From: an uncultured Dechloromonas sp.
GTDB lineage: Bacteria; Pseudomonadota; Gammaproteobacteria; Burkholderiales; Rhodocyclaceae
Direction of reading: 5' to 3'
NCBI RefSeq assembly: GCF_945957265.1
Contig: NZ_CAMFKO010000017.1
Location: 7,458-71,457 of the forward strand
Length of the DNA: 64,000 nucleotides
Shown: piece by piece, positions 3,758 through 23,057 of the stretch
How positions within the stretch are numbered: the first letter of the stretch is position 1
How the letters are laid out: every line of letters starts with the position of its first letter
Program-made: the position numbers and the translations under genes
The notes under the pieces: generated by a model
Seen by the model: the letters and a program-made list of their open reading frames with translations, nothing else
Database searches by the model: none
What the model was told of the DNA's origin: nothing

Positions 3758-3780
3758 GAGTTTGCTCCTTCCAGAAATGC

Positions 3781-3814: not shown

Positions 3815-3856
3815 ATGTGCGAGGGATGAATGGTTAAACGCGGATTCAGGTGACGA

Positions 3857-5310: not shown

Positions 5311-5723
5311 TGTCTGACTCCTGTAGATGAAAAGGACGAACGAAATCAGCGAACGCCATTTCTGGCACTCGCTGATTTGAACGTAATGAGGAGTTAGGTA
5401 CGGAGGCCAGCTGGTTGATTCTGGCCAATCTGCCATGTTTTGCGGCAGACGATCACCTTCTCAAGGAGGTGATATGTGATTGAAAAAAACTAAAATCCAC
5501 AGGATATTGCGTGGGATCACTCAGCATGATCATTTCAAGCCATACATTCCCGGCTCGCAAAACTGGCCTGGTAGATAGTCAGAAAACGCGTGCGCTTCCC
5601 TGCGAAGGAGTGGCATGCAAATACTTCCTGCCCTACTCCACCCCAAGTTATCATGCTGAATTGATTAACAGGTGGTCGGTATAGTGTTGATCGCCACCGG
5701 AGCAACCAAGGAGCAACGGACAA

Positions 5724-5757
5724 TGAAAAACAAAAAAGCCACTCCGAAGAATGGCTT
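5724..5757 (-). terminator. Rho-independent terminator downstream of the tRNA
   Basis: The minus strand reads AAGCCATTCTTCGGAGTGGCTT (stem AAGCCA/TGGCTT, CTTCGG-type loop) followed by TTTTTTGTTTTT. Confidence 0.6.
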
Positions 5758-5773
5758 AAGTGTTTGATTTTAC

Positions 5774-5847
5774 TGGTGCCCCCGAACGGAATCGAACCGC
5801 TACCTGATGATTACAAATCAACTGCACGACCTTCATGCTACGGGGGC
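5774..5847 (-). tRNA. tRNA-Thr (anticodon UGU), atypical
   Basis: I folded the reverse complement GCCCCCGTAGCATGAAGGTCGTGCAGTTGATTTGTAATCATCAGGTAGCGGTTCGATTCCGTTCGGGGGCACCA by hand. It has a 7-bp acceptor stem, a T-arm with a TTCGATT loop, an anticodon loop TTTGTAA and an encoded CCA. Oddities are a T-T mismatch in the anticodon stem and G instead of A at position 14. Confidence 0.6.
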
Positions 5848-5886: not shown

Positions 5887-7659
5887 ATGAGCACATTGAC
5901 GAATCCATTCGAGATTGCCCGCGAAACACTGCGGCTGCTGGCCGCCCGGCGCATTGCGCCAACTCCGGACAATTACCTGACGCTTTATCACGAGATTTCC
6001 GGCACCAAGGCGACCGCTCCCGGCTTCCCCGACACACAGCTCCGGTCGCTTGCCGCAGCGCTTCCCAGGACATCGCCAGACCAGCTGCGCCTGGCCAGGC
6101 AACTGGACGATGCCGTCAAGGCCGCCAATTGGGATGCATACAAAGGACATCTGGTCGAATTTGTCACGGCCTTATCGAGCAGCCAGAAGCTTGCCTGGTC
6201 CGACCTGATTGCGGACTTGCTGCGCCAGTGGGATGCCAAGCACCAAGGGCTCACGTCGGCACGCAAGCGCGAGTCGCTCGAACACGTCCTGGCCGGCAGT
6301 GGCGCCAATCCGGAAACCTTGTTCAACCGCCTTCAAGGACTACTCAAGTCATGGGGGCAGGGGCGGGATCAGGACAAACCGGAGGCGAGCACGGAAACCG
6401 CTGCCGAGGGCGGCCAGCCCGCCCCCGCAAGCGCGACCATGCCTGTTCAGGTCGAAGATTTACTGCCCGAATTACGCGAACTGTTCGCGTTTACGCTTGA
6501 AACGGCGATTGCCACGCAACTTCTTGAAACGCCGGCCTTATCGGTAGACGCGAAAACGCTGGCGCAGGATATCCGCGCGGCGGTCACGGCCAGCCAGCTT
6601 GCCGAGTTTCTGACGCGCCTGAAGCGCTTCGCCTTCAAACTGGAGTTGCTGGCCGAAGACCAGGCCGAACTGCGCCAAAGCCTGCTGAGCCTGCTCAGAT
6701 TGCTGGTCGAGAACATTACCGAACTGACGCTCGACGACCATTGGCTGCACGGGCAGATCGAGGTCGTGCGGGAAATCATCGGCAAGCCGCTTTCGCAACG
6801 CGCCCTGGACGACGCTGAACGGCGCCTGAAAGAAGTTCTGTTCAAGCAGAGCCAGCTCAAGGCGAGCCTGTTCGAGGCCAAAGAAGCGATCAAGCAGATG
6901 CTGGCCGGTTTTGTCGACCATCTCGCCGACTTTGCCGAAGTCACCTCCGACTACCACGACAAGATCGAAAGCTACGCCGGGAAAATCACGTCAGCCAAGG
7001 ACATCACGGAGTTGGGCGGCGTCCTTGACGAGGTCATGCGCGAGACGCGCGCCGTTCAGATCAACGCCCAGCGATCGCGCGACGAACTTCGCTCCACGCA
7101 AGAGAAGGTCAAGGAGTCCGAGGCTCGCATCCAGGAACTCGAACGAGAACTGGAAGCCACCAGCGACCTGGTGCGCCACGACCAACTCACCGGCGCCCTC
7201 AATCGACGCGGCCTGGAGGAAATATTCTCCAAGGAGTCGGCGCGCGCCAAACGCCACGAAACCCAACTGTGCGTTGCCCTGCTGGACATCGACAACTTCA
7301 AGAAACTGAACGACAGCCTGGGGCACGATGCCGGGGACAAGGCCCTGATTCACCTGGCCAACGTCTGCCGCGAAACCCTGCGCCCCCAGGATACGGTTGC
7401 GCGCTACGGGGGTGAGGAATTCATCATTCTGCTGCCGGACACCCTGATCGACGAAGCCGTCACGGCCCTGACCCGCCTGCAGCGGGAACTAACCAAGAAA
7501 TTCTTCCTGAGCGACAACGAGAAGGTGCTCATCACCTTCAGTGCCGGCGTAACGCCGCTACGCCCCGAAGACGGGCAGCACAGCGTGATCAAGCGTGCCG
7601 ACGAAGCCATGTATCAAGCCAAGCAGACGGGGAAGAACCGTGTGGTGGCGACAAACTGA
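5887..7659 (+). CDS. Diguanylate cyclase (GGDEF domain) with a long helical N-terminal region
   Basis: The active site is RYGGEEFIILL. An RxxD I-site (RPQD) lies 5 residues upstream of it. DQLTGALNRRGL is also present. The coiled-coil-like N-terminus is about 420 aa. Confidence 0.9.
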   Translation: MSTLTNPFEIARETLRLLAARRIAPTPDNYLTLYHEISGTKATAPGFPDTQLRSLAAALPRTSPDQLRLARQLDDAVKAANWDAYKGHLVEFVTALSSSQKLAWSDLIADLLRQWDAKHQGLTSARKRESLEHVLAGSGANPETLFNRLQGLLKSWGQGRDQDKPEASTETAAEGGQPAPASATMPVQVEDLLPELRELFAFTLETAIATQLLETPALSVDAKTLAQDIRAAVTASQLAEFLTRLKRFAFKLELLAEDQAELRQSLLSLLRLLVENITELTLDDHWLHGQIEVVREIIGKPLSQRALDDAERRLKEVLFKQSQLKASLFEAKEAIKQMLAGFVDHLADFAEVTSDYHDKIESYAGKITSAKDITELGGVLDEVMRETRAVQINAQRSRDELRSTQEKVKESEARIQELERELEATSDLVRHDQLTGALNRRGLEEIFSKESARAKRHETQLCVALLDIDNFKKLNDSLGHDAGDKALIHLANVCRETLRPQDTVARYGGEEFIILLPDTLIDEAVTALTRLQRELTKKFFLSDNEKVLITFSAGVTPLRPEDGQHSVIKRADEAMYQAKQTGKNRVVATN

Positions 7660-7689: not shown

Positions 7690-8916
7690 ATGCTTGCGCT
7701 CTGCCCGGACTACTATCCGAAATTCCAATGTATCGGGTCGACCTGTGAAGATTCTTGCTGTATCGGCTGGCGGGTCCATCTGGACAAGGCAACTTATCAC
7801 TTTTACAAACAGAACCAGCATCCCAATCTGCGTGAACGCTTCAAGAATACGATTCAGCGAACAGATATAAAGGGCGACACCCAGCATTTTGCCGTCATCG
7901 AGATGGCGGAGAGGGGGCGCTGCCCTTTTCTTGACCCGGACAATCTCTGCGCCATTCATCGCAATCTCGGCAGCACGGCACTCAGCAACGTGTGCGCGAC
8001 ATTCCCGAGGCGGGCGAATCTCAGCGGCAAGCAGCTGGAATACTCGCTATCGCTGGCGTGCCCGGAGGCCGCGCGCCTCGTGCTGCTGCAAAAGGAAGCG
8101 ATGGGGTTTGTCGAGATACCGATCGACACCACCCTGGCAAGTGCCGCCCCCCCGGCCGAACTCTCACCTCACGAAGAACAAAGCAGCCTGCTGCTCAACG
8201 ACCTGCGGGCGCTCATCATCGGCATTCTGCAGTTGCGCGAATTGCCCGTCGATCATCGACTAATCCTGCTGGGCCTGCTGCTCGAGGACTTCGAGGCGGC
8301 ATCCCTGGCCAACGAAGCCCTGCCGCCGGTGTTGCACCGTTACGTCGGATTGCTCGGCGCCCCGGACTTGCTGCGGAATGAACTGGATAAAATCGAGCCC
8401 TGCCTCGCCGTCAAGATTCACCTCGTCGCCCACCTGATCGGCGACATACCGACACCCGCCCATAACATTCGCTTTCGCACCCTGCTGGACGAGGCGGCCC
8501 AAGGCCTGAAATTCGAGTCCTCGCAACACGACGGGCAACATGAGGCCTACGAACGCGACTACCGCCCCTACTTTGAAGCGCACCCCCACATTCTCGAAAA
8601 CTACCTGGTTCACTACGTCATTCACAACCTCTTCCCCGTCGTGCGCACGTCGGTTGTCGTTCAATACCGGGAACTGATCTGCGACTATCTGGCGATCACG
8701 ACCTTGCTGTTCGGACAAGCCGTTTTTCACCGGGGGATGACCGATGCGCTGGCCGTCAAGACGATTCAATCCTACACACGCTTCGCCGGCCACTACTCCC
8801 AGTTCAAGGAGACCGTCGCGCGCACCCTTGAACAGCAGCAGCTATCCGATCTGCGCCGGCTGTTCCAGCTGATCGCTCCCCCCAAATCAAGCCGGGCGCC
8901 AGCGAGCGCTGCATAA
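7690..8916 (+). CDS. fliB: Flagellin lysine-N-methylase FliB
   Basis: Cys-rich N-terminus FQCIGSTCEDSCCIGWRVHLDK...CPFLDPDNLCAIHRNLG...CATFPRR...SLSLACPEAARL. I recognise it as matching Salmonella FliB. Confidence 0.8.
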   Translation: MLALCPDYYPKFQCIGSTCEDSCCIGWRVHLDKATYHFYKQNQHPNLRERFKNTIQRTDIKGDTQHFAVIEMAERGRCPFLDPDNLCAIHRNLGSTALSNVCATFPRRANLSGKQLEYSLSLACPEAARLVLLQKEAMGFVEIPIDTTLASAAPPAELSPHEEQSSLLLNDLRALIIGILQLRELPVDHRLILLGLLLEDFEAASLANEALPPVLHRYVGLLGAPDLLRNELDKIEPCLAVKIHLVAHLIGDIPTPAHNIRFRTLLDEAAQGLKFESSQHDGQHEAYERDYRPYFEAHPHILENYLVHYVIHNLFPVVRTSVVVQYRELICDYLAITTLLFGQAVFHRGMTDALAVKTIQSYTRFAGHYSQFKETVARTLEQQQLSDLRRLFQLIAPPKSSRAPASAA

Positions 8917-8947
8917 TCCCTGCGACACTTTGCCGAGGCCAACCCTG

Positions 8948-10246
8948 ATGCCCACAATCTACGTAGGAATGACCGTCGATGTTCTGCACCACGGACATAT
9001 CAACATCATCACGGAAGCCAGCAAACACGGCGAACTCATCGTCGGCCTGCTGACCGACGCGGCCATCGCCAATCACAAGCGACTCCCTTACCTGAGCTAC
9101 GAGCATCGCAAACAGATTCTGCAGAATATCAATGGCGTAGCACAGGTTGTTCCGCAGAACGAATGGGATTACGCCCCCAACCTGCGCAAGTACAAACCCG
9201 ATTTGATGATGCATGGCGACGATTGGCACGAAGGCCCGCTGGCCCCCTATCGCGAGCGCGCATTGGCCGCACTGGCGGAATACGGCGGGCGCCTGATCGA
9301 AATCCCATACACCCCGGGCGTCTCGTCGAAAGCCATCATTGCCCAGATGCAGGCGCTCGGCACCTCACCGGAAATACGTCGCCAGACGCTCAAACGCCTG
9401 CTGGGCGCGAAACCGATTTCCCGCTTCATCGAAGCGCACAACCCCATTTCCGCCCTGCTCGCGGAACATGTGAGCATCCAGCGTGACGGCGCGATCCGCC
9501 AGTTCGACGGCTTCTGGTCGAGTTCCCTGACCGACTCGACAGTCCGGGGGAAGCCGGATATCGAAGCGGTCGACATCACCAGCCGACTCTCCAACATCAA
9601 CGACATCTTCGACGTCACCACCAAGCCGCTGATCATGGACGCCGACACGGGCGGCAAACCGGAGCACTTCGAACTGCACGTCCGCAGCATGGAACGACTG
9701 GGCATCTCGGCGACGATCATCGAAGACAAGACCGGGCTGAAGAAAAATTCCCTGTTCGGAAACGATGTCGTACAAAGCCAGGACGACATCCCCCACTTCT
9801 GCGAAAAGATCCGCGCCGGACGAGCCGCCCGCGTCAGCGAAGATTTCATGGTCATCGCCCGCATTGAAAGCCTGATCCTGGAGCGCGGCATGGATGACGC
9901 CATTGCGCGCGCCCAGGCCTATGTCGAGGCCGGCGCCGACGGCATCATGATCCACAGCCGGCGCAAGACCCCGGACGAGGTTTTCGAATTCGCCCGCCGT
10001 TTCCGCCAGGATTTCCCCAGCGTGCCGCTGGTATCCGTACCCACCAGCTATAACAGCACCACCGAAGAACAGCTGGCGGAGCATGGATTCAACATCGTCA
10101 TCTACGCCAACCACCTGCTGCGAGCCGCCTATCCGGCCATGGAAAAGGTCGCCCGACAAATTCTGGAAAACGGCAGATCGGCCGAAACCGACCGTGACCT
10201 GATGGACATCAACGCCATCCTCGAACTGATCCCGGGAACCCGCTGA
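8948..10246 (+). CDS. Bifunctional cytidylyltransferase / phosphoenolpyruvate mutase (PepM)
   Basis: The N-terminal HxGH nucleotidyltransferase motif (VDVLHHGH) is at 8987-8998. The C-terminal domain carries the PepM hallmark EDKX5NS (EDKTGLKKNS, nt 9722-9751). The start was trimmed to ATG 8948. Confidence 0.85.
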   Translation: MPTIYVGMTVDVLHHGHINIITEASKHGELIVGLLTDAAIANHKRLPYLSYEHRKQILQNINGVAQVVPQNEWDYAPNLRKYKPDLMMHGDDWHEGPLAPYRERALAALAEYGGRLIEIPYTPGVSSKAIIAQMQALGTSPEIRRQTLKRLLGAKPISRFIEAHNPISALLAEHVSIQRDGAIRQFDGFWSSSLTDSTVRGKPDIEAVDITSRLSNINDIFDVTTKPLIMDADTGGKPEHFELHVRSMERLGISATIIEDKTGLKKNSLFGNDVVQSQDDIPHFCEKIRAGRAARVSEDFMVIARIESLILERGMDDAIARAQAYVEAGADGIMIHSRRKTPDEVFEFARRFRQDFPSVPLVSVPTSYNSTTEEQLAEHGFNIVIYANHLLRAAYPAMEKVARQILENGRSAETDRDLMDINAILELIPGTR

Positions 10247-11394
10247 TGATAGACCCGAAGGACTTCGCCGCCGCACTGCGCGATGCCGGCATCCAATTCA
10301 TCACCGGCGTCCCCGACTCCCTGCTCAAGGACATCTGTGCCCACCTCACGGCAAGCCTGCCGGCGGAAGCGCACCGGATCGCCACCAACGAAGGCTCGGC
10401 TGTCGGCCTCGCCATCGGGCATTACCTGGCGACGGGGAATCCGGCCATGGTCTATATGCAGAACTCCGGGCTGGGCAATATCGTCAACCCGGTCGCCTCC
10501 CTTGCCGACCCGCTCATCTATGGCATTCCGATGCTGCTGATGGTGGGCTGGCGCGGAGAAATGCTTCCGGACGGCAAGCAGATCAACGACGAACCCCAAC
10601 ACGTCAAGCAAGGCCGGATCACGCTGACGCAACTCGAAACGCTGGGCATTCCCTATCGCATCGTTGATGCCCAAACGACGGACATCCAGGGCTGCATCGC
10701 GGCAATGCGCGACCAATCGGTGCAACGTAACGGCCCTGTTGCCATGGTCGTCCGCAAACAGACTTTCGCCCCCTGCGCCCTGCCCGCCCGGAATGAAGCT
10801 GCCGAGCAGCCCAGCCGCGAAGAGACCATTCAGACGGTGGTCGACATACTCCCCCCCGATGCGGCCATCGTTGCCACGACCGGCATGGCATCCCGGGAGC
10901 TCTTCGAATACCGGCGCGCGCTCGACAGCGGCCACCAGCGCGACTTCCTGACCGTCGGCGGCATGGGGCATGCCTCGCAGATCGCCGTCGGCATTGCCCA
11001 GGCCCGACCCGATCGCCGGGTCGTCTGCCTGGATGGCGACGGCGCCATCCTGATGCACCTGGGCGGCCTGGCCCTTGCCGCACGGCAAGGCAACCTGCTC
11101 CACCTGGTCATCAACAACGGCGCTCACGACTCGGTGGGCGGGCAACCGACACTGGCCCGCGAACTCGACCTCGCCGCCATCGCCCTGGCGCTGGGCTACA
11201 CGCACGTCGAGTCGGTTGGCAGCCGTGCCGAATTGGGCGATGCACTGCGGCGCGCCCTGGCTTCCGCGGGCAGCGCCTTCGTCGAGGTGCGCTGCCGCAC
11301 CGGCGCCCGCGCCAACCTCGGGCGCCCCGACATACCGCCCTCCGACAACAAGCGGCACTTCATGAATTTTCTGGCAGGAACGATGGATGAATAA
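10246..11394 (+). CDS. Phosphonopyruvate decarboxylase (thiamine-diphosphate dependent)
   Basis: The N-terminus is FITGVPDSLLKD. The TPP motif LDGDGAILMHLGG...VINNGAHDSVGGQ is present. The start overlaps the pepM stop (TGATG). Confidence 0.85.
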   Translation: MIDPKDFAAALRDAGIQFITGVPDSLLKDICAHLTASLPAEAHRIATNEGSAVGLAIGHYLATGNPAMVYMQNSGLGNIVNPVASLADPLIYGIPMLLMVGWRGEMLPDGKQINDEPQHVKQGRITLTQLETLGIPYRIVDAQTTDIQGCIAAMRDQSVQRNGPVAMVVRKQTFAPCALPARNEAAEQPSREETIQTVVDILPPDAAIVATTGMASRELFEYRRALDSGHQRDFLTVGGMGHASQIAVGIAQARPDRRVVCLDGDGAILMHLGGLALAARQGNLLHLVINNGAHDSVGGQPTLARELDLAAIALALGYTHVESVGSRAELGDALRRALASAGSAFVEVRCRTGARANLGRPDIPPSDNKRHFMNFLAGTMDE

Positions 11395-12388
11395 GTCCGA
11401 CGAGTCGATTGCCGGTCTGGTCGCCCGACGCAATGCCGAAAAATGCCTGTTCACCGCCGGCCCGGCTAGCCTGCTCACGGAAAACCTGACCGGGCTCCGC
11501 CCCTGTTTCGGTCGGGGAGACGCCGATTACGCCTCGCTGGAAACGACGGTGCTGGATGCGTTGAAGGCGCTGTCCGGGCATCGTGAAATTGCCCGCCTGC
11601 AGGGCTCGGCCAGCCTGGCGCTCGAACTGGCCACGCTCAACTTCCTCGCCGGGCGCGTCCTGATCGTCTCCTCCGGCTACTACTCCGACCGTCTGCAAGC
11701 CATGGCCGAGGCGGCGCAACGCCAAACCGGACGCATCACGCACATCGGCAGCATTGCATGGAGCCAACTGCCGGAACTCAACGAAGGCTTCGACTGGCTG
11801 GTCGCTTGTTACACCGAAACCAGCGTCGGGCTGCGCCTGCCGATGGCCCAGCTCCTTGCCGCCAAGCAGCGTGCCGGCGCCCGGATGCTGCTCGATGCCA
11901 CGGCCTCGATCGGCCTGGAGACGGGGCACGAGCACGCGGACGTCATCGCCTACTCGTCGTGCAAGGGCCTGTTCGGCCTTACCGGTGCCGCCTTCATCGC
12001 CTTCAACGAGCACCCGGGCTATGCGCCGGATTCGTTCTATCTCAATCTCGACAACCACCTCGAGCGGCGGATGACCGGCCCCTACCATGCCATTGCCTCG
12101 CTGGCCGACGTATTGCCGAGGCATGCCGATTTCCGGTCGGCCGTCATGCAGAACAAGGCCGCCTTCATGGCCCGGATGCGCCCCTACCTGACGCGCCAGG
12201 AAGACCAGCAACCGGCGCTGTGCACCCAGATCAGCGCCACGATCACCTCGACGGACCCCAGAGCCATCCTATATGCTCCGCGAGGCAACCAGGGCGGCAG
12301 CGTGGTATGCCACCTCGGCGAAGCCCACCTTGGCGCGGCCGCGCGCGGAGACATTCTGAATCTTCTGGAGCTCGATCCAACACCATGA
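11387..12388 (+). CDS. Class V aminotransferase, 2-aminoethylphosphonate:pyruvate transaminase-like
   Basis: It has a PLP-type fold with the SSCKGL lysine motif. It sits directly after pepM and ppd, with an 8-nt overlap with ppd. Confidence 0.7.
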   Translation: MNKSDESIAGLVARRNAEKCLFTAGPASLLTENLTGLRPCFGRGDADYASLETTVLDALKALSGHREIARLQGSASLALELATLNFLAGRVLIVSSGYYSDRLQAMAEAAQRQTGRITHIGSIAWSQLPELNEGFDWLVACYTETSVGLRLPMAQLLAAKQRAGARMLLDATASIGLETGHEHADVIAYSSCKGLFGLTGAAFIAFNEHPGYAPDSFYLNLDNHLERRMTGPYHAIASLADVLPRHADFRSAVMQNKAAFMARMRPYLTRQEDQQPALCTQISATITSTDPRAILYAPRGNQGGSVVCHLGEAHLGAAARGDILNLLELDPTP

Positions 12389-12813
12389 CCGCAGGACAAG
12401 CCCCCTCGCATCAAAGGCGGATCATGGTCGACATGTCCGCCACGCTGCTGCACCACGGTCACATTCGCCTGCTCAAGGCAGCCAAGCAACTGGGCACCGT
12501 GGTCGTCGCGCTGACCACCGACGACGAGATCCGCAAGAAAAAGGGCTACGACCCCGAGCTCAGCTATGCCGAACGCAAGGAAATCCTCGAAGCAATCCGC
12601 TATGTCGACGAGGTCGTCCCATGCAACTGGCTGATCGAGAACGAGCTGCTCGAACGCCATCGGATCGACCTGCTGGTTCATGGACACGACAACGCCAACC
12701 CCATTCCAGACGACAAGCTCGTCATCCTGCCGCGCACCGAAGGCATCAGCAGCAGCGAGCTGCGCCAGCGGGTCGTCCATGCCCTGGCACAAATCGGCGA
12801 GAACCCGCGATGA
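12385..12813 (+). CDS. TagD-like cytidylyltransferase (glycerol-3-phosphate cytidylyltransferase family)
   Basis: The motifs LLHHGH, RYVDEVVP and LPRTEGISSSELR closely follow B. subtilis TagD. There is an ATGA overlap with the upstream gene. The long track ORF 11758-12813 is an out-of-frame extension. Confidence 0.75.
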   Translation: MTAGQAPSHQRRIMVDMSATLLHHGHIRLLKAAKQLGTVVVALTTDDEIRKKKGYDPELSYAERKEILEAIRYVDEVVPCNWLIENELLERHRIDLLVHGHDNANPIPDDKLVILPRTEGISSSELRQRVVHALAQIGENPR

Positions 12814-13538
12814 GTCATGAAAACTGGCAATCCATCTGGGCAAGGCGCGGCACCTCGGATGCAAGCGGGTTATCGCTCGAAGAGCTGCTGAGACTGGACG
12901 GATTCGATTCGGGCGCCGCCTGCATCGACCCACAGGATTGGCGCAGCTATGCCCAAGACCTGGCGAACCGCCTGAACATCCGCGAAGGCCAATCCGTCTT
13001 CGAAATCGGCTGCGGGGCAGGCGCCTTTCTCGCCGCGCTGTCCGAAACGCGATCGATCGTCGTTGGCGGCATCGACTATGCCGAAGGGCTCATCGGAAAC
13101 GCCCGTCAAGCCCTCCCGCAGGGCTCCTTTCAGGTTGGCGACGCCGAAGCGCTTGAGCCGGCGCCGCCTGCGCACCACGTCATCGCCAACAGCGTGTTTC
13201 AGTACTTTCCCCTTGGCAAAGCCGGAAACATCCTGCAGCGGATGCTGAGCAAAGCCGCGATGACAGTCGCCGTCCTGGACATTCCCAACCGCGAGACGCA
13301 GGCGGAATGCGAAGCCGTCCGTCGCGCGGCCCTGCCGGAGGCCGAGTACGAGCGCAAGTATGCGGGGCTGGAGCACACCTACTTCGACCGCGACTGGTTT
13401 GCCTGCCAGGTGAATCCGGATGAATGGCGCTGCGAAACAATCGATGGCTTCATCCCCAACTACACCCAGAACCAGTTTCGCTTCGCCGCCCTCTACCGAC
13501 GCGTCACCCCCCTGATCACCCCCACGGAACGCATCTGA
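12810..13538 (+). CDS. Class I SAM-dependent methyltransferase
   Basis: Motif I is VFEIGCGAGAFL. There is an ATGA overlap with the upstream gene. Confidence 0.75.
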   Translation: MSHENWQSIWARRGTSDASGLSLEELLRLDGFDSGAACIDPQDWRSYAQDLANRLNIREGQSVFEIGCGAGAFLAALSETRSIVVGGIDYAEGLIGNARQALPQGSFQVGDAEALEPAPPAHHVIANSVFQYFPLGKAGNILQRMLSKAAMTVAVLDIPNRETQAECEAVRRAALPEAEYERKYAGLEHTYFDRDWFACQVNPDEWRCETIDGFIPNYTQNQFRFAALYRRVTPLITPTERI

Positions 13539-13543
13539 CCCCC

Positions 13544-14950
13544 ATGCCCGCTTCTCTCGCCTCGTCACCCAGACAATTCACGTTTTTCCATACCGATGGC
13601 TGCGAACGACAGACGGTGGAGCCGATCGCCGACGAGGCGGCACGACGCGGCTACGCCGTTCGCTTCACGGAAGACATGGGGGAACGAGCCGACATAGGCG
13701 TCTATTGCCAACACGCCTGCCGGCCCAATGCCAATTTTTCCGTCATCACCCTGCACGACCTCGCGCAACGGCATGACATCTGGCCACGCTTCTGGCAGAC
13801 CGAGCCGTGGAACGACTTCGATATCGGCCTGGTGCCCGGTGAAACCTGGGTAGATCGCTGGCAATCGCAGGCCGACTTTCCGGTTGCACGCCCAAGACTT
13901 GGCCTCTTCAATCTCGGCTGGCCGAAAGCCGATCTGGTCTTTCGCAGCCGCACTCGCTTTGCCGAGGCGGCCGCCGAACTACGCCAGAAGCTGGGCTTGC
14001 AGCACGAACACTCCGTGCTGTATGCCCCGTCCTGGGAAAACGACGGCAAGCAGGACGATTTCGTCAAAGCCTTGAGCGAGTTGCCCGTCAACCTGTTGCT
14101 CAAGCAGGCCCCGTGGTCCAATGACTATCCGATGGTCCTCGAAAGCATACGGGCCATGAACGCCCTTCATCGGGGTTGCGCACCCAATGTCCACATCATC
14201 GACCCCGATGTGAGCATCATGTATTGCCTTGGCCTGGCCGACGTTCTCGTCTCGGACGAATCCAGCGTCCTCACGGAGGCCCTGTTGCTCGACGTGCCGG
14301 GTGTCGCGGTTGTCGACTGGCTGATTCCCGACCGCATTCCTTCGCGCTTTGCCGAAGTGCCCTACGATTACGTCATCAAGACGCAGAAAGCCGATTTGCG
14401 GCAAACCGTCCAGGAAATTCTGGCTGCGCCCGCCGCCTACCGCGCAGCCACCGCCCAGGTGAAACACCAGCAATTCAGCAACCTCGGGCAAAGTGCAAAA
14501 GCCATTGTCGACACTATCGAGGCCGCCCTTGGCGGCCATCCGCTTCCCTATCCGCCTTGCGCACCGCGCGTCGACCTGGATCGCCAGCAGTTTCGACTGG
14601 CGGAAGCCCTGATCCAGCAGGGAAAAGCAAGCGAAGGACTGCAGCAACTCTTCGCCATGGCCAATGCCGGGACCGCATGCTGGGAAGTGTTCAACTATCT
14701 TGGCTTGCTGGCCTACGATGAAGGCAAGATCGACGATGCCGCGCTTTTCCTGGAAGTCGCTGCCGACCGCGCCCCCGATCCACGAGCACCGCTGGCCAAC
14801 CTCATCGACCTCCAGTGCGGCCGACAAGACCGTGAGAAGGCACTCGCGGCACTCGGCGCCTACATGCAGCAAACCGCCACCTCGCCGCAGCTCTTCAAGG
14901 CCATCCAGGTCTTCCTGCATATGCTGAACGCCCCGTCGGCAGCCCACTAG
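13544..14950 (+). CDS. TagF-like CDP-alcohol phosphotransferase (Glyphos_transf family) with a C-terminal TPR region
   Basis: VLYAPSWEND and DVLVSDESSVLTEAL resemble the YAPTWR / DYSS motifs of teichoic-acid glycerophosphotransferases. The C-terminal ~110 aa are TPR-like (WEVFNYLGLLAYDEGKIDDAALFLEVA...). Confidence 0.65.
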   Translation: MPASLASSPRQFTFFHTDGCERQTVEPIADEAARRGYAVRFTEDMGERADIGVYCQHACRPNANFSVITLHDLAQRHDIWPRFWQTEPWNDFDIGLVPGETWVDRWQSQADFPVARPRLGLFNLGWPKADLVFRSRTRFAEAAAELRQKLGLQHEHSVLYAPSWENDGKQDDFVKALSELPVNLLLKQAPWSNDYPMVLESIRAMNALHRGCAPNVHIIDPDVSIMYCLGLADVLVSDESSVLTEALLLDVPGVAVVDWLIPDRIPSRFAEVPYDYVIKTQKADLRQTVQEILAAPAAYRAATAQVKHQQFSNLGQSAKAIVDTIEAALGGHPLPYPPCAPRVDLDRQQFRLAEALIQQGKASEGLQQLFAMANAGTACWEVFNYLGLLAYDEGKIDDAALFLEVAADRAPDPRAPLANLIDLQCGRQDREKALAALGAYMQQTATSPQLFKAIQVFLHMLNAPSAAH

Positions 14951-14994
14951 CAGCCTGACAGCCAACAACCTACCAGCCCTCATCCGAATCCGCC

Positions 14995-17900
14995 ATGAAG
15001 CATACCTACGACACCCAGAGGAATCTGTGGACCCGCCCCGACTTTTCCGGGATCGCCTATTCAGACGGCTCCGAAATCGAGGCCCGCTTGTTGCAGGTCA
15101 TGCGCTCGGTCAAGGACAAATCCGTATTCTCCATTGAGTTGGCGTCGCATATCAGTGACTGGGCAAGCGAATACCACCTGACGGCCAGCCGGCACTGCCT
15201 GATGCGGCCGATCCCGTTCGAGGCAGGCCAGAGCGTGCTGGAACTCGGTTGCGGCTGCGGTGCCATTACCCGCCACCTGGGGGAGCTCGGCCTGAATGTG
15301 ACGGCCGTGGAAGGGGGTGCCAAGCGTGCCGAAATTGCTGCCGAACGCGTGCGCGACCTTCCCGATGTCAAAGTGGTTTTCGACGACCTGGTGCAATTCC
15401 AGTCCGACGAAAAATTCGACTGGGTCACATTGATCGGCGTTCTCGAGTATTCACCGATGTTCGCCCCCGGAGACGACCCGGTCAGCGCCTACCTCAAGCA
15501 GGCGCTTTCCTACCTGAAGCCGGGCGGCCGACTGGTCATCGCCATCGAGAACCAGTTGGGGTTGAAGTACTTCAACGGTTGCGGCGAGGACCACGTCAAC
15601 CTCCCGTTTTTTGGCCCCCAGGGCCTGTATCAACGCGGAGGACCGGTCACTTTCGGCAAGCGGCAGCTGAAAAAACGTTTGCTCGATATCGGCTTTTCCG
15701 GGGTGGATTTCTTCTACCCCTACCCGGACTACAAGATTCCTCAGGCGATCATCTCCGAATCCGCCTTCATGACGCCGGAATTCAAGGTCGCCGACATCTT
15801 GTTGCGCATGGATTCCAGAGACTATACCGGACGTCCCTTCCGTCTCTTTTCCGAGCAACTGGTTGCCCGCGAACTGGAGGACAACGGCGTCCTCTCGGAT
15901 TTCGCCAATTCCTTCCTGCTCATCGCCCGTCAGACCGATCCGGTTGCTGCGCCCCCCGACGAAGCCATTGCCTGGTGCTTCAGCCTCAACCGTTTGACGC
16001 GCTACAAGACGGAAACGACCTTTCACGTATCCGGCGAACGGATCGAAGTCAGAAAAAACCGCGCCGCCCCTCCGCACCTGAGGCAATCGGTCCCCCCCGG
16101 CAAGATCACGCACCACCTGGGCAACGCGCTTTATCATCGGGGGCGGCTGCAAGCCTGGCACCTCCTCAAGGCCAAGTTCCGCCCCTACAACGAGGCCGAA
16201 CTGGCTGCCGCCTTCTTGCCGCATGCCCGCTACCTGCTTGATCGAAGCGAGCAAACCCCGGGGAGCAACCCGGCGCTTCTGGAGTCGTGGCTAACCGCCG
16301 GCACACTGCTCGACCTGACGCCTTTCAACGTCATCGAAACCAGCAACGGCCCACAAGAAATCGACATGGAATGGGAGGTGCCCGGACAAGTCCCAACCGG
16401 ATGGGTTCTTCTGCGCAGCATAGCCAATTCCCTGATGCTCGGCATGACGCCGGACGAAGCAGAACAGACGACCCTGGGCGGACTGACCCAAAAGATTCTG
16501 GCCGGACTGGGAATGCAGTACGCTCCGTCAAGCTTCAGGCAGTGGGCCCGGCTTGAGCAGGAATTCATCGAATCCGTTTGCGGCGTAAAAACCCGCCTGC
16601 TCCCCCCCGACATCTCGATCTCCCAACTCAGCTCCTACCGCAAGCTCGACATCGACCGCTGGGGCACCCAGCATTCCACGCCAGGCGGCCGAACTGCACC
16701 GCCCAAACAGATTGTCGCATCGGATGTGCAGTCGCCCGACCCCTTGACGCCAACCGGACATGTCGCGGTAAGCGCCGTGGTCATGTGCTACCAGCAACAT
16801 GACATCGTTCAGCGCACCCTGCAAAGCCTGCTGACCCAGGACTATCCGATTGACGAAATCATCGTCAGCGACGACTGCTCGACGGACGGAACGATCGAGA
16901 TGATTCTGGCGATGGAGCCACAGCTGCGCCAGCGCTGCAACAATCTGCTCATCCGCCAAAATCCGAAGAACCTGGGCATCGTCGGACACTTCAACGTGCT
17001 TTTCGAACAGGCCCGCAACGAATTCATCGTCTATTTTGCCGGTGACGACATTTCGGAACCGCAGCGTGTCCGCCGCCTCGCCGAACACTTCCGCAGCCAG
17101 GATCGTCCGCGCTATTACCTGATCCACAGCGATGTCCGGATGATCGATGACGCCGACAATCCCGGTGACGTCCTCAAACCACCGGTCATCACCGGTCGCC
17201 TCGACCTCATGGAAACGGCACTGTCGGCGAGCCTTCACATTGGCGCCACCGCCGCATTTACCCGTGCGCTGTGGGCCGACTACGGAGGCTTCGAGGAACG
17301 CTGGGTATACGAAGATCTGATCCTGGGCTGGCGCGCCGCCATGCACGGCCATTATCACTATCTTCCGGAGCCCCTCCTGCGCTACCGCGCGGGTGGCGTC
17401 ACCTTTAAGAACATGTCGCCTGAAAAACAGCGGCGGCATCTGCTCTCGCTGTATCGCCAGCGCCTCATCGACACGAACGTCGCCGAAGCTGCAGGCCTGA
17501 GAACCGACTTGGGCGACGTACGCTACCGTCTTTCGGTCAACCTCAATGCGCTGGAATCGTCGCAAGCGGTCTCCGAATTCGATCTTTCCTACGTCCAGTG
17601 GCGGGCCGCGCGACAAATCCTGCCCGAGGACTTGCGCCAGATAGGCCAGGAGCTGTCGACGCTGGCGGACAACGCCCCCCGATTCCAGATCGTGATGCGC
17701 CTGCCGGCCGATTCGACCCCGGCCCTGGCCGACACGCTGGACGCGCTGAACGGTCAATATTATCCCCATTGGCGCGTCGACCTGGTCACAACCCTGCCCG
17801 CCCCGGCAGGGATGGATGCAGTTGCCTGTATTGGATGGCACACGATCGATCCAGCCGTCGATGCCGCCCAGGCAATCAACGCGATTGTCTCGGCCCAACC

Positions 17901-20259
17901 GGGCGACTGGACCCTTGAACTCCCCCCCGGGGCCCAGCCGGATCCGCTTCTGTTCTGGCGTCTCGCCCGCGAGATTTCCCGAAATCCGGATGCCGTGGCG
18001 TACTTCGTCGATGACGACTGCCGCGACCAATTCGGCGAACGTTGTGCGCCGCGCTTCAAGCCGGGCACCAATCCCAGCGCCTTGAAATCCGCCGACCTGG
18101 CCGGTCCGCTCTGCATCCGCCGGGACACCTGGCAAGCCATCGGCGGTGCCCCTGTGCAGTCGGGCAGCCCGTGGTTCGCGCAGTTGCTGGGCATTGCCGA
18201 TCAAGCCGGCTGGCAAGCCATCCGGCACGTGCCAGATGTATTGCTGACCTACCCGAACGCCTTCCCAAGCGATGCGCAAGCCTGCCTGGAAACCCTGATC
18301 GCCCATCACGACGCCAAAGGCTGCCCGATCGAAATCGTGCCGAGCACCGAGTGCAGCTGGAACATCCAGCCGCTCCCCGCCGAGATGCCCGCCGTCAGCA
18401 TCGCGATCCTCTCCTGCGGCCAGGTCGATCTGTTGTCCCGCTGCTTCGACAGCATACTCAGCCAAACCAGCTATCCAAGCGTCGAGATCCTGGTCGTTCT
18501 CGATACGCTTAACGCCGACCCCGGCCTCGGCGACTGGCTCGCCACCCAGGAGGCCGGCAGCTTTCCGATTCGGACAATCCGCTCCAGCGAAGCGCAGACT
18601 TACGCCGAACGCTGCAATCTCGCCATGCGGGAGGCTCGCCATGAACATGTCGTGCTGATGCGCGAAGAAGCCGTCATCATTCAGCCGGCCTGGCTGGAGG
18701 AATTGACCAAAACCTCGATGGAAAGCGGCATCGGCGCCGTTTCGCCCCGTATGGTCCTGCCCGGCAGCGGCAACATATCCCACGCCGGCTTATATCGTGG
18801 ACTGGTCGGCTTGGCCGGTACCCCCGCCGACGAGCAAACCAGGCTTGGCGAACACGGTTATCTGGATACGCTCAGCGGCGCCCGGGACGTAGAGGTGCTG
18901 CCGACGGGATGCTTCCTGATCCGGAAAACGGCATATGAAGCATGCGGCGGCATGGATGGCGCCGCCTTCGGCGATCACTTTGCCGAAATCGACCTGTCGC
19001 TGAAACTGGCGGGCAATCGCTGGCGTATCGTATTCCAGCCCCTGGCAACCCTGGTTTATGGTGGCGCAACCCCCATCCCCGAACAACTGGGCATGAGTTC
19101 GCGGGCAGAGCAAGCCATTCGCGCCAGCAACGCCGAAAGGCTGCTGGTCGAAAAATGGGGAGGAGGCTGCGCAAACACAGGCTACCTGAACCCCAACCTC
19201 TCCCTGGCCAAGGGCAAGCCTATCCTCGAAACGGACACCCACCCGCAGTGGCAGTATCTGCCCACGGACAAACCCCGCTTCCTGGCGAGGACACTCCCCA
19301 ACGGCCAGGGCATCTTCCGGGTTACCGCTCCCCTGCGGGCATTGCGCAAACAAGGCCTGGCTGCCGAATGCGTCTGGGAGCAGGAAGCATCCCGCGAGCC
19401 GAGCATCTCCGAACTCGCCCGCCTGGCGCCGGACAGCCTGGTTGTCCAGCACTACGTTCAGGAACGTCAGCTCAAGAGCCTGAACGATTGGTCACGCATC
19501 AAGAACCGTCCATTCACGGTCTTTGCAATGGACGATCTGCTGACCAACCTGCCCGCCGACAACTTCATGCGCCAGTTCATGGCCCCCAACAGCCGCGCCT
19601 GTCTCAAGTACGCCCTGGACCGTTGCGATCGCCTGGTCGTGTCGACCGATTTCCTGGCCGATTACTACCGCAGCTTCATCAGCGACATTCGCGTTGTTCC
19701 GAACCGCCTGGAACAGGAAATCTGGCTGCCACTGACCAGCCGGAAACGCGTCTCGCCCCGCCCCCGCATCGGCTGGGCCGGCGGCACGACCCACCACGGC
19801 GACCTGCTTCTGCTCAAGGAAGTCATCGAACAAACCCGGGGCGAGGCCGACTGGGTGTTCTTCGGCATGTGCCCGGATGAAATTCTCCCCCTGGTTGCCG
19901 AATTCCACCCTCTCGCCGCCTTCCACGACTATCCGGCGCGACTGGCATCGCTCAACCTGGACATCGCTGTCGCGCCATTGCAGGATCATCCGTTCAATCA
20001 TGGCAAGAGCAATTTGCGCCTGCTGGAATACGGCGCACTGGGCATTCCGGTAGTGTGCAGCAACTTGACGCCCTATCGCGACAGCCCGGCCTGCTGCGTG
20101 CCGAATGACCCGGTCGCCTGGATCGAGGCGCTACGCGAGCGCATTCACGATGCTCCTGCGCGCGAAGCCGAGGGCTTGGCGCTGAAACGCTGGGTACGCC
20201 AGCATTACCTGCTGGAAAACCATTTGTCTCAATGGCTTACGGCGCACCTGCCAGGCTGA
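14995..20259 (+). CDS. 1754-aa multidomain enzyme: N-terminal SAM methyltransferase + three GT2-like domains + C-terminal GT-B-like glycosyltransferase domain
   Basis: Methyltransferase motif VLELGCGCGAITRHL is at aa 81-95. GT2-A is VSAVVMCYQQHD...IIVSDDCSTDGT...FAGDD (aa ~590-800). GT2-B is FQIVMRL...YFVDDDC (aa ~896-1090). GT2-C is VSIAILSCGQ...VEILVVLD...LMREEA (aa ~1133-1360). The C-terminal domain is RIGWAGGTTHHGD...NLRLLEYGALGIPVV (aa ~1425-1754). Confidence 0.8.
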   Translation: MKHTYDTQRNLWTRPDFSGIAYSDGSEIEARLLQVMRSVKDKSVFSIELASHISDWASEYHLTASRHCLMRPIPFEAGQSVLELGCGCGAITRHLGELGLNVTAVEGGAKRAEIAAERVRDLPDVKVVFDDLVQFQSDEKFDWVTLIGVLEYSPMFAPGDDPVSAYLKQALSYLKPGGRLVIAIENQLGLKYFNGCGEDHVNLPFFGPQGLYQRGGPVTFGKRQLKKRLLDIGFSGVDFFYPYPDYKIPQAIISESAFMTPEFKVADILLRMDSRDYTGRPFRLFSEQLVARELEDNGVLSDFANSFLLIARQTDPVAAPPDEAIAWCFSLNRLTRYKTETTFHVSGERIEVRKNRAAPPHLRQSVPPGKITHHLGNALYHRGRLQAWHLLKAKFRPYNEAELAAAFLPHARYLLDRSEQTPGSNPALLESWLTAGTLLDLTPFNVIETSNGPQEIDMEWEVPGQVPTGWVLLRSIANSLMLGMTPDEAEQTTLGGLTQKILAGLGMQYAPSSFRQWARLEQEFIESVCGVKTRLLPPDISISQLSSYRKLDIDRWGTQHSTPGGRTAPPKQIVASDVQSPDPLTPTGHVAVSAVVMCYQQHDIVQRTLQSLLTQDYPIDEIIVSDDCSTDGTIEMILAMEPQLRQRCNNLLIRQNPKNLGIVGHFNVLFEQARNEFIVYFAGDDISEPQRVRRLAEHFRSQDRPRYYLIHSDVRMIDDADNPGDVLKPPVITGRLDLMETALSASLHIGATAAFTRALWADYGGFEERWVYEDLILGWRAAMHGHYHYLPEPLLRYRAGGVTFKNMSPEKQRRHLLSLYRQRLIDTNVAEAAGLRTDLGDVRYRLSVNLNALESSQAVSEFDLSYVQWRAARQILPEDLRQIGQELSTLADNAPRFQIVMRLPADSTPALADTLDALNGQYYPHWRVDLVTTLPAPAGMDAVACIGWHTIDPAVDAAQAINAIVSAQPGDWTLELPPGAQPDPLLFWRLAREISRNPDAVAYFVDDDCRDQFGERCAPRFKPGTNPSALKSADLAGPLCIRRDTWQAIGGAPVQSGSPWFAQLLGIADQAGWQAIRHVPDVLLTYPNAFPSDAQACLETLIAHHDAKGCPIEIVPSTECSWNIQPLPAEMPAVSIAILSCGQVDLLSRCFDSILSQTSYPSVEILVVLDTLNADPGLGDWLATQEAGSFPIRTIRSSEAQTYAERCNLAMREARHEHVVLMREEAVIIQPAWLEELTKTSMESGIGAVSPRMVLPGSGNISHAGLYRGLVGLAGTPADEQTRLGEHGYLDTLSGARDVEVLPTGCFLIRKTAYEACGGMDGAAFGDHFAEIDLSLKLAGNRWRIVFQPLATLVYGGATPIPEQLGMSSRAEQAIRASNAERLLVEKWGGGCANTGYLNPNLSLAKGKPILETDTHPQWQYLPTDKPRFLARTLPNGQGIFRVTAPLRALRKQGLAAECVWEQEASREPSISELARLAPDSLVVQHYVQERQLKSLNDWSRIKNRPFTVFAMDDLLTNLPADNFMRQFMAPNSRACLKYALDRCDRLVVSTDFLADYYRSFISDIRVVPNRLEQEIWLPLTSRKRVSPRPRIGWAGGTTHHGDLLLLKEVIEQTRGEADWVFFGMCPDEILPLVAEFHPLAAFHDYPARLASLNLDIAVAPLQDHPFNHGKSNLRLLEYGALGIPVVCSNLTPYRDSPACCVPNDPVAWIEALRERIHDAPAREAEGLALKRWVRQHYLLENHLSQWLTAHLPG

Positions 20260-20293
20260 AACACCAAAAACAAAATTTTTTAATAAAAAGTAC

Positions 20294-20320
20294 TAAAGTT
20301 CTTCAAGGAAAGGTCGTTAA
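20294..20320 (+). promoter_or_regulatory. Sigma-28 (FliA) promoter of fliC
   Basis: TAAA (20294-20297), a 15-nt spacer, then GTCGTTAA (20313-20320), compared with consensus TAAA-N15-GCCGATAA. A nearly identical extended motif occurs upstream of flgM. Confidence 0.7.
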
Positions 20321-20418
20321 GGAACTTGTCAGCGAATTAATCGCCGTACAACCGGGACAACAGAACGCGGTAATGCAAGTAGGTCGCTCCCAGTACCAAC
20401 ATACTTAGGAGAATCAAA

Positions 20419-21114
20419 ATGGCTGTCATCAACACCAATGCCTATTCGCTCAATGCGCAACGCAACGTCGCCAAGAACGACGTCGGTCTGGCTTCCGCCC
20501 TTGAGCGCCTGTCCTCCGGTCTGCGCGTCAACTCCGCCAAGGACGACGCCGCCGGTCTGGCCATCGGCCTGAACATGGATGCCTACTCGCGTACGATCAG
20601 CTCCCGCATCCGCAACAACTCCGATCAGATTTCGGCCAACCAGATTGCTGACGGCGCGCTTCAATCGCTGGGCGACATCGCCCTGCGCGCTCAGGAACTG
20701 ACTGCCCAGAAAACCAACTCGCTGCTGGGCACCACCGAAAAGGGCTACATCGACAAGGAAATCGCTGCGCTCGCTACCGCTGCCAGCACCGTCGTTACCA
20801 ACGCCACCTTCAACGGCACGACCCAGGTCAGCCTGACCTTCACTTCGGCCACCATCGGCACGACCGCTGCCCTGACCTCGATCGCTTCCGCCCGCGCCAC
20901 GGCCGGTGCCAACATCAACGCCGCCCAGTTCCAGATCGAAGCCGACCGCTCCGCCTACGAAAACCAGATGGCTGCCAAGAGCCGCATCATGGACGCCGAC
21001 TTCGCGGAAGAAACCGCCCGCCTGTCCCGTCACCAGGTTCTGCAACAGGCCGGCATGGCGATGGTTTCGCAAGCCAACGCCGTTCCGCAAAACGTCCTGG
21101 CGCTGCTGCGTTAA
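20419..21114 (+). CDS. fliC: Flagellin, unusually short (231 aa, D0/D1 core only)
   Basis: The termini are conserved: MAVINTNAYSLNAQRN...LERLSSGLRVNSAKDDAAGLAI and ...MDADFAEETARLSRHQVLQQAGMAMVSQANAVPQNVLALLR. The centre is Ser/Thr-rich. Confidence 0.93.
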   Translation: MAVINTNAYSLNAQRNVAKNDVGLASALERLSSGLRVNSAKDDAAGLAIGLNMDAYSRTISSRIRNNSDQISANQIADGALQSLGDIALRAQELTAQKTNSLLGTTEKGYIDKEIAALATAASTVVTNATFNGTTQVSLTFTSATIGTTAALTSIASARATAGANINAAQFQIEADRSAYENQMAAKSRIMDADFAEETARLSRHQVLQQAGMAMVSQANAVPQNVLALLR

Positions 21115-21136: not shown

Positions 21137-21171
21137 AATGGGTGCAGCGGCGGAAACGCCCTGCACCCATT
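21137..21171 (+). terminator. Strong hairpin after fliC with no U-tract (possible attenuator or partial terminator)
   Basis: AATGGGTGCAG...CTGCACCCATT forms an 11-bp stem, with an inner GGCG/CGCC extension. Confidence 0.4.
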
Positions 21172-21198
21172 CTGCCATTCACACCGGGAGTACATATC

Positions 21199-21579
21199 AT
21201 GAGCATCGGTGCAATTCAGGATAGTGGAAACATGGGAGCGGCTGCCACCAGGCTGCCAGTCAATACGCAGCAAGCCCGACCGACCCAGGCTGCCCCCCAG
21301 GCAAACCGGGCGGATAGCGGAAGCGATCAATCCGCAAACCAGAGCCGCCAGGGCGGGTCCCTCTCGGTCGAGCAGGCGGTTGAACGTTTGAAGCAGTTCG
21401 TATCCACCGCAGACGCGGATATTAATTTCGCGATCGACAGCAATTCCGGCGTATCGGTTGTGAAGATCGTGGACCGGAGCACCAAGGACATCATCAGGCA
21501 AATTCCTTCCGAAGAGGCAATCAGCCTGGCAATGGCCCTGGATAAACTGCAAGGCTTGTTCGTTCGCGAAAAGGCCTGA
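21199..21579 (+). CDS. flaG: FlaG flagellar protein
   Basis: INFAIDSNSGVSVVKIVDRSTKDIIRQIPSEEAISLA is a typical FlaG C-terminus. A GGGAG RBS precedes ATG 21199. Confidence 0.85.
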   Translation: MSIGAIQDSGNMGAAATRLPVNTQQARPTQAAPQANRADSGSDQSANQSRQGGSLSVEQAVERLKQFVSTADADINFAIDSNSGVSVVKIVDRSTKDIIRQIPSEEAISLAMALDKLQGLFVREKA

Positions 21580-21587
21580 TTTTTGCT
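21572..21587 (+). promoter_or_regulatory. Sigma-54 promoter of fliD
   Basis: aGGCCTGATTTTTGCTt has GG at 21573-74 and GC at 21585-86, the canonical GG-N10-GC spacing. It overlaps the flaG stop. Confidence 0.6.
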
Positions 21588-21620
21588 TTATTTCAGGGTC
21601 TGCAATTAGGAGTATCGATC

Positions 21621-22991: not shown

Positions 22992-23057
22992 TGACAATCG
23001 GGCTTCGCCGATAACGTAAGATAGCCATCCTGTTGCCTCCCTTCGCCTGCCCTCGCC

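Follow-up and report, generated by a model that had tools for sequence, protein, structure and literature searches.

A candidate flagellin-modification island with a 2-aminoethylphosphonate pathway in an uncultured Dechloromonas sp.

The question raised by this locus is why genes for the synthesis of 2-aminoethylphosphonate (AEP), a compound with a carbon-phosphorus (C-P) bond, should lie directly upstream of a flagellin gene. The locus is contained in a 64,000-nucleotide stretch of DNA from an uncultured Dechloromonas sp. (contig NZ_CAMFKO010000017.1), referred to below as the window, in which nine tightly packed open reading frames (ORFs) span positions 7690–21114 of the + strand and end with the flagellin gene fliC. 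A first-pass annotation of the DNA had interpreted the eight genes before fliC as an island that decorates flagellin with a phosphonate. This interpretation was partly supported, being largely right on the biology and wrong on precedent. The island is judged moderately likely to be a flagellin-modification system on the plan of the type A system of Clostridioides difficile and the b-type system of Pseudomonas aeruginosa, with a head group that would be supplied by a phosphonate pathway.

Six consecutive genes, encoding a cytidylyltransferase–PepM fusion, Ppd, an aminotransferase, a TagD-like protein, a methyltransferase and a TagF-like protein, are termed the cassette. The fusion gene (8948–10246) encodes an N-terminal cytidylyltransferase domain (approximately 8951–9340) and a phosphoenolpyruvate (PEP) mutase domain (PepM, approximately 9380–10240). 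The protein scored 415 bits against the hidden Markov model (HMM) TIGR02320 at a cut-off of 319.55, placing its C-terminal domain in the PEP mutase family as had been proposed, and the models for methylisocitrate lyase and phosphonopyruvate hydrolase scored far under their own cut-offs. The active-site motif EDKX5NS was read as EDKTGLKKNS at residues 259–268, exactly at positions 9722–9751 where it had been reported. The N-terminal domain belongs to PF01467 and matches the Fom1 cytidylyltransferase structure (5x3d, E = 6.6e-47, residues 2–131), which identifies it by similarity as a Fom1-type phosphonate cytidylyltransferase, a similarity that does not discriminate between 2-hydroxyethylphosphonate, AEP and methyl-AEP as the substrate. 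The start of the next gene (10246–11394) overlaps the pepM stop codon and encodes the phosphonopyruvate decarboxylase Ppd (TIGR03297, 458 bits against a cut-off of 312.5), giving the PEP mutase its coupled enzyme. The closest PepM among the GTDB-species contigs scanned was 76% identical, and among named organisms the highest match to an island protein came from an Azonexus metagenome-assembled genome (MAG, 56%).

The third enzyme is a divergent class-V aminotransferase of 333 residues (11387–12388). Its earlier description as AEP-type agrees with its top PDB relatives, the AEP-pyruvate transaminases 7e7g (2.3e-10) and 1m32, although the cut-offs of the family models TIGR03301 and Aminotran_5 (19.8 bits against 21.5) were missed. 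The protein holds an SSCKG lysine motif of the expected Ser-x-x-Lys type and comes after Ppd in all cassettes, at 60–75% identity. A role as the transaminase that converts phosphonoacetaldehyde to AEP is inferred because of these PDB relatives, the lysine motif and the invariant synteny, and the protein is not filed as PhnW or AepZ. Taken by HMM scores and PDB relatives, the reading of PepM, Ppd and a transaminase as the route from PEP to AEP holds. The stand-alone TagD-like cytidylyltransferase that follows ends at 12813 and starts at 12424 in the gene call or at 12385; it scored 62.9 bits for PF01467 and 77 bits for TIGR01518, the latter under the cut-off, and is 66–83% identical across the full cassettes.

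The remaining genes before fliC would tailor, transfer and anchor the head group. The first encodes a class I S-adenosylmethionine (SAM) methyltransferase of 242 residues (12810–13538; Methyltransf_25, Methyltransf_11 and Methyltransf_12), whose weak PDB matches include phosphoethanolamine N-methyltransferases and which is predicted to N-methylate the AEP head group. The TagF-like phosphotransferase gene (13544–14950, with 13544 the most likely of its ambiguous starts) has a core at approximately 13571–14548 and scored 25.4 bits for PF04464 Glyphos_transf, against a gathering cut-off of 22.1. Its AlphaFold model had a predicted local distance difference test (pLDDT) score of 93, and the top fold matches were Cps3D (8qoy), TagF (3l7m) and TarL (8va1) with E values of 1e-11 to 1e-10, followed by UDP-N-acetylglucosamine (UDP-GlcNAc) 2-epimerases. 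Residues H71 and H209, possible counterparts of the catalytic histidines H444 and H584 of TagF, are invariant across 54 homologues. The last ~120 residues (approximately 14567–14929) form a helical repeat resembling tetratricopeptide repeats (TPRs), with weak TPR matches at residues 351–450. On its sequence and modelled fold the protein would be the phosphonyl (AEP) transferase of the island.

The largest gene (14995–20259) encodes a multidomain protein of 1754 residues, in which Pfam identified Glycos_transf_2 twice (16768–17379 and 18382–19053) together with a methyltransferase domain; when a weak GT-B-like C-terminus (19762–20244) is counted there are three glycosyltransferase domains. The N-terminal module of ~530 residues, composed of the methyltransferase and a conserved domain (14995–16614), recurs beside TagF-like genes in flagellar and O-antigen loci alike and is therefore regarded as part of the phosphonate tailoring and not of the sugar part, the glycosyltransferase content itself varying between lineages. 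The model of this module had a pLDDT of 92 and its top fold matches were phosphoethanolamine N-methyltransferases, a resemblance taken as a hint only because the margin over other class I methyltransferases was small. The conserved domain behind the methyltransferase (residues ~250–540, window 15700–16614) belongs to a family of >1000 members and was modelled at pLDDT >90; the fold search matched it to no solved structure and explained the methyltransferase half of the module alone. The families proposed earlier for the TagD-like, methyltransferase, TagF-like and giant proteins were all recovered.

That flagellin is the target is suggested by the surroundings of the cassette. The run opens with fliB (7690–8916), encoding a flagellin lysine-N-methylase that scored 277 bits against NF038110 (cut-off 85), and an identical fliB gene in another locus (L001) carries PF27117 FliB_C; the FliB and Ppd assignments of the first-pass annotation thus both lie above curated NCBIfam cut-offs. 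The gene order and close packing that it described were read again in the sequence: TGATG at 10244–10248, an 8-nt overlap at 11387–11394 and ATGA at 12385 and 12810. The other genes of the run are spaced by 31, 5 and 44 nt, and 159 nt separate the giant gene from fliC. The ORF boundaries also agree with the genes called in independent contigs from metagenomes that code for an identical PepM protein. Its statement that the run contains no wzx, wzy or ABC-transporter genes was upheld in three ways: no exporter, flippase, polymerase or initiating transferase had a Pfam match among the island proteins, none of the eight has a clear predicted hydrophobic membrane-spanning segment, and tblastn searches of window positions 1–31000 with Wzm, Wzt, Wzx and Wza queries gave zero matches. 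The island does not have the composition of a Wzx/Wzy or ABC-type polysaccharide locus.

The fliC gene itself (20419–21114) encodes 231 residues with Flagellin_N (93 bits) and Flagellin_C (61 bits) domains. Serine and threonine make up 39% of the centre of the protein compared with 12% of the termini, and there are six lysines. It is a very short flagellin, in which only ~46 residues separate the conserved N- and C-terminal regions; short flagellins, of 263–292 residues, also adjoin the cassette in the other loci of proteobacterial type. The flagellin had been described as driven by sigma-28, and a relaxed motif of the form TAAA-N15-GTCGTTAA is indeed present 99 nt upstream of fliC on the + strand (TAAAGTTCTTCAAGGAAAGGTCGTTAA, 20294–20320), although the exact consensus TAAA-N15-GCCGATAA gave zero matches in the window. 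The degenerate form has three matches in the window, where 0.01 would be expected. The two further sigma-28-like copies, TAAA-N15-GNCGTTAA, lie at 43394–43420 (- strand) and 51446–51472 (+ strand); one is directly upstream of flgK and the other has no identified downstream gene. Immediately 3' of fliC are flaG, fliD and fliS (21142–23465, + strand; assigned by Pfam and synteny), a trio that fliC also has beside it in the related loci, followed by a FliK-like gene, ycgR, a FleS/FleR-like pair, fliF, fliG, fliI, fliM, fliP, flgL, flgK, flgH and motB, so the island forms the edge of a large flagellar region, and its GC content equals that of the region.

Gene neighbourhoods in other genomes were used to examine the linkage between the cassette and fliC. 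TagF-like genes were clustered at 85% identity into 44 clusters, of which 30 had at least 12 kb of context, and neighbours were counted within 10 kb; a metagenome scan with the TagF-like alignment added 80 loci. Among the 30 clusters fliC was found in 15, pepM in 19 and both in 8, and a polysaccharide exporter was found in 5, never together with fliC. The close relatives (PepM 80–88% identical) share the order GGDEF–(FliB)–cassette–giant gene, and a flagellin gene comes directly after the giant gene in L047; the contigs of L045 and L046 stop inside the giant gene. In Methylophilus methylotrophus DSM 46235 the six-gene cassette is divergent from fliC-flaG-fliD-fliS, accompanied by a convergent 1727-residue protein that combines a GT41 O-GlcNAc-transferase-like domain and TPRs with the same methyltransferase module. 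In a Vogesella MAG (L049) fliD-fliS-fliT-fliK are accompanied by a PF12804-type cytidylyltransferase–PepM fusion, Ppd, an aminotransferase, PntC, a methyltransferase and a TagF-like protein, with FliB last; on these family assignments the activating enzyme is exchanged for a non-orthologous type and the flagellar context is retained. Further arrangements have the full cassette (L052, L054, L059, L073 and L086) or no pepM within the available stretch (L069 and L077). The loci that pair this enzyme set with flagellar genes range in GC from 0.42 to 0.70 and show several gene orders and orientations, so that the predicted linkage of pepM and ppd to fliC was found in many lineages. These neighbourhoods strongly back the view that the link between the cassette and flagellin is more than coincidence.

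In Methyloglobulus, Accumulibacter, Halioglobus and a Fibrobacteria MAG the PepM–Ppd–aminotransferase–cytidylyltransferase module was also found, there in loci that carry Wzm/Wzt, Wzx or Wza/Wzz genes and in which no flagellar genes were seen. The module is therefore regarded as a portable supply unit, with the locus taken to indicate the target, which here would be flagellin. The TPR-like tail was considered as a strict marker of flagellar loci and rejected: 7 of the 10 clusters with a tailed TagF-like gene have fliC, but so do 8 of the 20 that are untailed or otherwise extended. No exporter was found in the 10 tailed clusters, and the tail is retained as a tendency alone. Steps of the pathway are also tied together by gene fusions in relatives, which join the TagD-like cytidylyltransferase to the aminotransferase (L050, 3461–4792), the methyltransferase to the TagF-like enzyme (P0169 and P0195), and the TagF-like enzyme to the methyltransferase module in a 1776-residue ORF (L073, from 5651).

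On the 5' side the island is preceded by a gene for a GGDEF diguanylate cyclase of 590 residues (window 5887–7659), which ends 30 nt before fliB and occupies the same place in L045, L046 and L047, a position that hints at filament modification being regulated together with c-di-GMP signalling. A tRNA-Thr (tgt) gene lies at 5774–5847 on the - strand, ~2 kb upstream of the island. It is flanked, within window 1148–5847, by mobile-element genes of lower GC (0.55) that include a Gp3-like recombination directionality factor, a YqaJ recombinase and DUF932; an element seems to have integrated at the tRNA gene, just before the GGDEF gene and the island. In L045 an integrase and a HigB toxin gene are located upstream of the GGDEF gene.

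The first-pass annotation had supposed that no phosphonate-modified flagellin had been described. This does not hold, as Hensbergen et al. 2022 reported 2-AEP on the GlcNAc of the type A glycan of C. difficile FliC (PMC8861647), and the modification is mentioned in a 2025 review (PMC12645811). In C. difficile the 2-AEP form is a minor species, the genome has no pepM and the source of AEP is not known (PMC8861647). The chemistry is the same as that predicted for the island; the island differs in having a dedicated pathway encoded within the flagellin locus, from which the modification is predicted.

The closest described gene systems are CD0240–CD0244 of C. difficile 630 and PA1088–PA1091 of P. 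aeruginosa PAO1, in which CDP-activated N-methyl- or N,N-dimethyl-threonine phosphate is put on the flagellin sugar by a TagF-like phosphotransferase (PMC10714395, PMC11833859). Like the island, these genes adjoin fliC and encode a glycosyltransferase for flagellin serine or threonine, a cytidylyltransferase, a SAM-dependent N-methyltransferase and a TagF-like phosphotransferase, the last being fused to a glycosyltransferase in PA1091 (PMC10714395, PMC11833859). The island encodes all four enzyme classes on a single strand, within the 8 kb that precede fliC. The combined structural resemblance of its TagF-like enzyme to TagF and to 2-epimerases is the same pair reported for CD0244, a likeness drawn from the published description (PMC10714395). 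The run contains no HAD or phosphoserine-phosphatase-like gene that could encode a ThrH-like phosphoserine:threonine phosphotransferase of the CD0241/PA1089 type, the source of phosphothreonine in those systems, and the island is therefore considered a variant of the type A/b-type system and not a member of it. PepM, Ppd and the aminotransferase stand in place of the ThrH-like enzyme, and the predicted product has a C-P bond. The cytidylyltransferases also differ, being of the PF01467 (Fom1/TagD) type in the island and of the LicC/NTP-transferase type in CD0242, and the island has in addition three glycosyltransferase domains and a second methyltransferase module.

The Pnt clusters for cell-surface AEP combine PepM, Ppd and an AEP transaminase with the cytidylyltransferase PntC (Rice et al. 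2019, PMC6697681; Li and Horsman 2022, PMC8942020). They share with the island the core AEP pathway and two nucleotidyltransferases, of which one is fused to PepM and the other encoded nearby, and use the CMP-AEP donor that is proposed for the island; the characterised PntC is PF12804, whereas the island enzymes are PF01467. These inventories (PMC6697681, PMC8942020) cover glycan, lipid and small-molecule contexts and do not discuss the TagF-like transferase or the ~530-residue methyltransferase module, and a search of both for "flagell" gave 0 matches. The CDP-polyol phosphotransferases TagF, TarL and Cps3D have in common with the island TagF-like enzyme a GT-B-like fold and, by prediction, phosphotransfer to a hydroxyl with CMP as the leaving group. 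The island enzyme is 14–16% identical to them, much shorter, soluble, non-polymerising as judged by its context, extended by the TPR-like tail and proposed to use a CMP-phosphonate donor. In the full-text literature outside subscription journals, no report of a pepM pathway inside flagellin loci was found, and the C. difficile work was the sole match for phosphonates in connection with flagellin or glycosylation islands; such loci are widespread and apparently undescribed.

Several observations weigh against the assignment of the island to flagellin modification with AEP. The aminotransferase scored 55 bits against the AEP-transaminase equivalog TIGR03301, whose cut-off is 360.8, the PF04464 match of the TagF-like protein barely exceeds its cut-off, and the specificity of the methyltransferase is drawn from weak and generic class I similarity. 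Adjacent flagellin was seen in just 2 of the 38 GTDB-species loci with a cytidylyltransferase–PepM fusion. The PepM–Ppd–aminotransferase–cytidylyltransferase module also serves the polysaccharide loci of Methyloglobulus, Fibrobacteria, Accumulibacter and Halioglobus, so the module alone leaves the target undefined, and two clusters with tailed TagF-like genes (L051 and L055) carry the cassette apart from flagellar genes. The last two points, together with the tRNA-Thr and mobile-element genes 2 kb upstream, would fit a cassette that decorates another glycoconjugate, such as lipopolysaccharide O-antigen, capsule or another glycoprotein, and which lies at fliC only because the flank of the flagellar cluster is a hot spot for variable insertions. 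This explanation is unlikely given that linkage to fliC recurs in many lineages with differing GC and gene order and with either type of cytidylyltransferase, and that no cluster combines fliC with an exporter. Membrane proteins, flippases, polymerases and initiating transferases are also missing from the island, FliB is first in the run here and last in Vogesella, and the GC of the island fits the flagellar region and not the lower-GC mobile element.

If flagellin is accepted as the target, the phosphonate could still be attached without a sugar, with the TagF-like enzyme esterifying AEP directly to flagellin serine or threonine and the giant-protein glycosyltransferases serving a separate modification. 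The TPR-like tail, suggesting a protein partner, would suit such an arrangement, as would the lack of any glycosyltransferase within 10 kb in the Vogesella locus and the stand-alone cassette of L051, and the wide differences in sugar-transferase content among lineages in which the phosphonate genes are constant. It is nevertheless very unlikely, since the characterised TagF-family enzymes all use sugar or polyol hydroxyls, the phospho group is carried on a sugar in both C. difficile and P. aeruginosa, and glycosyltransferase domains adjoin or are fused to the methyltransferase module here and in most relatives. Production of a free, antibiotic-like phosphonate or of a phosphonolipid is less likely still and was given very little weight. 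The fused cytidylyltransferase does resemble Fom1, JGI labels some homologues "2-hydroxyethylphosphonate cytidylyltransferase", and a CDP-alcohol phosphatidyltransferase gene follows the cassette in L028; the island, however, contains no Fom3/Fom4-type enzymes, alcohol dehydrogenase, resistance or export gene, or membrane-bound CDP-alcohol transferase, and PF01467–PepM fusions, which account for 23.6% of all PepM, are mostly associated with surface tailoring (PMC6697681).

The favoured model thus remains a flagellin-modification system with a phosphonate head group, in which the gene content, the protein families, the modelled TagF fold and the recurrent linkage of pepM to fliC are observed, and the substrates, products, order of methylation and acceptor are predicted from them. 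PepM would convert PEP to phosphonopyruvate, and Ppd would decarboxylate this to phosphonoacetaldehyde, drawing the unfavourable PepM equilibrium forward. The 333-residue aminotransferase would then form AEP, which would be activated to CMP-AEP by the Fom1-like domain of the PepM fusion, by the TagD-like protein or by both of these PF01467 cytidylyltransferases. At some stage the amine would be N-methylated by the 242-residue methyltransferase and possibly also by the methyltransferase module of the giant protein. Sugar would be added to serine or threonine in the exposed centre of flagellin by the glycosyltransferase domains of the latter, and the soluble TagF-like enzyme, perhaps engaging flagellin with the help of its TPR-like tail, would take the (methyl)AEP-phosphonyl group over from the CMP donor and place it on a hydroxyl of the sugar. 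FliB would methylate flagellin lysines separately, and all of these modifications would take place in the cytoplasm, prior to export through the flagellar apparatus. By this reading of the genomes the host and several unrelated bacteria probably attach a C-P compound to the sugars of the flagellar filament.

A broader and more doubtful proposal is put forward tentatively. The TagF-like core of ~330 residues could be the missing phosphonyl-transferase step of bacterial phosphonate tailoring, travelling with the ~530-residue methyltransferase module. The pair would serve two kinds of acceptor, namely flagellin glycans, for which the core frequently bears a TPR-like tail, and O-antigens exported by ABC transporters, on which the phosphonate might cap the chain end. 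On flagellin, the two phosphoethanolamine-methyltransferase-like enzymes would then give N,N,N-trimethyl-AEP, a non-hydrolysable phosphonate analogue of phosphocholine on the filament.

Other loci encountered in the search show related gene combinations. PepM-based AEP modules are located beside Wzm/Wzt genes in L048 (Accumulibacter), L080 and L009 (Methyloglobulus), the Wzt proteins having a C-terminal cap-binding domain; a TagF-like gene and the methyltransferase module are also present in L048 and L080, whereas the contig of L009 stops short of the place where they would lie. In these loci the phosphonate may be a chain-end cap controlling O-antigen export. In the Firmicute isolate Agathobaculum desmolans ATCC 43058 (L038, 8925–14651) genes for a radical-SAM/SPASM protein, a cytidylyltransferase, PepM and Ppd directly precede the gene for a flagellin of 368 residues, no TagF-like match was found in the locus, and it may represent a second, independent link between phosphonate and flagellin in Clostridia. 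A human-gut contig (L091, 5208–16007) and ~30 similar low-GC human-gut contigs (L092–L133) encode flagellin, Glyco_tranf_2_5, a 657-residue methyltransferase module and a 617-residue TagF-like protein, together with DUF3880 glycosyltransferases, an AMP-binding enzyme and LicD; in contigs of the L091 type pepM is absent from the 10 kb around. Both pepM and ppd occur in the gut relatives L126 and L130, and pepM in L119. These contigs point to a family of phospho-head-group decorations on the flagellins of gut Firmicutes.

If the favoured model is correct, the island would provide a genetic basis for phosphonate-bearing flagella, for which the sole earlier report, in C. difficile, came without a known source of AEP, and the TagF-like protein would be a candidate enzyme for the poorly understood transfer of an activated phosphonate to a surface acceptor. 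A cultured and sequenced organism in which this can be tested exists in Methylophilus methylotrophus DSM 46235 (= ATCC 53528). As the C-P bond withstands phosphatases and phosphodiesterases, the decoration could make the filament surface unusually stable, and it could alter recognition by phages, predators and immune receptors. The TagF-like and methyltransferase pairs beside flagellin genes of human-gut Firmicutes suggest that such decorations may reach medically relevant flagellins.

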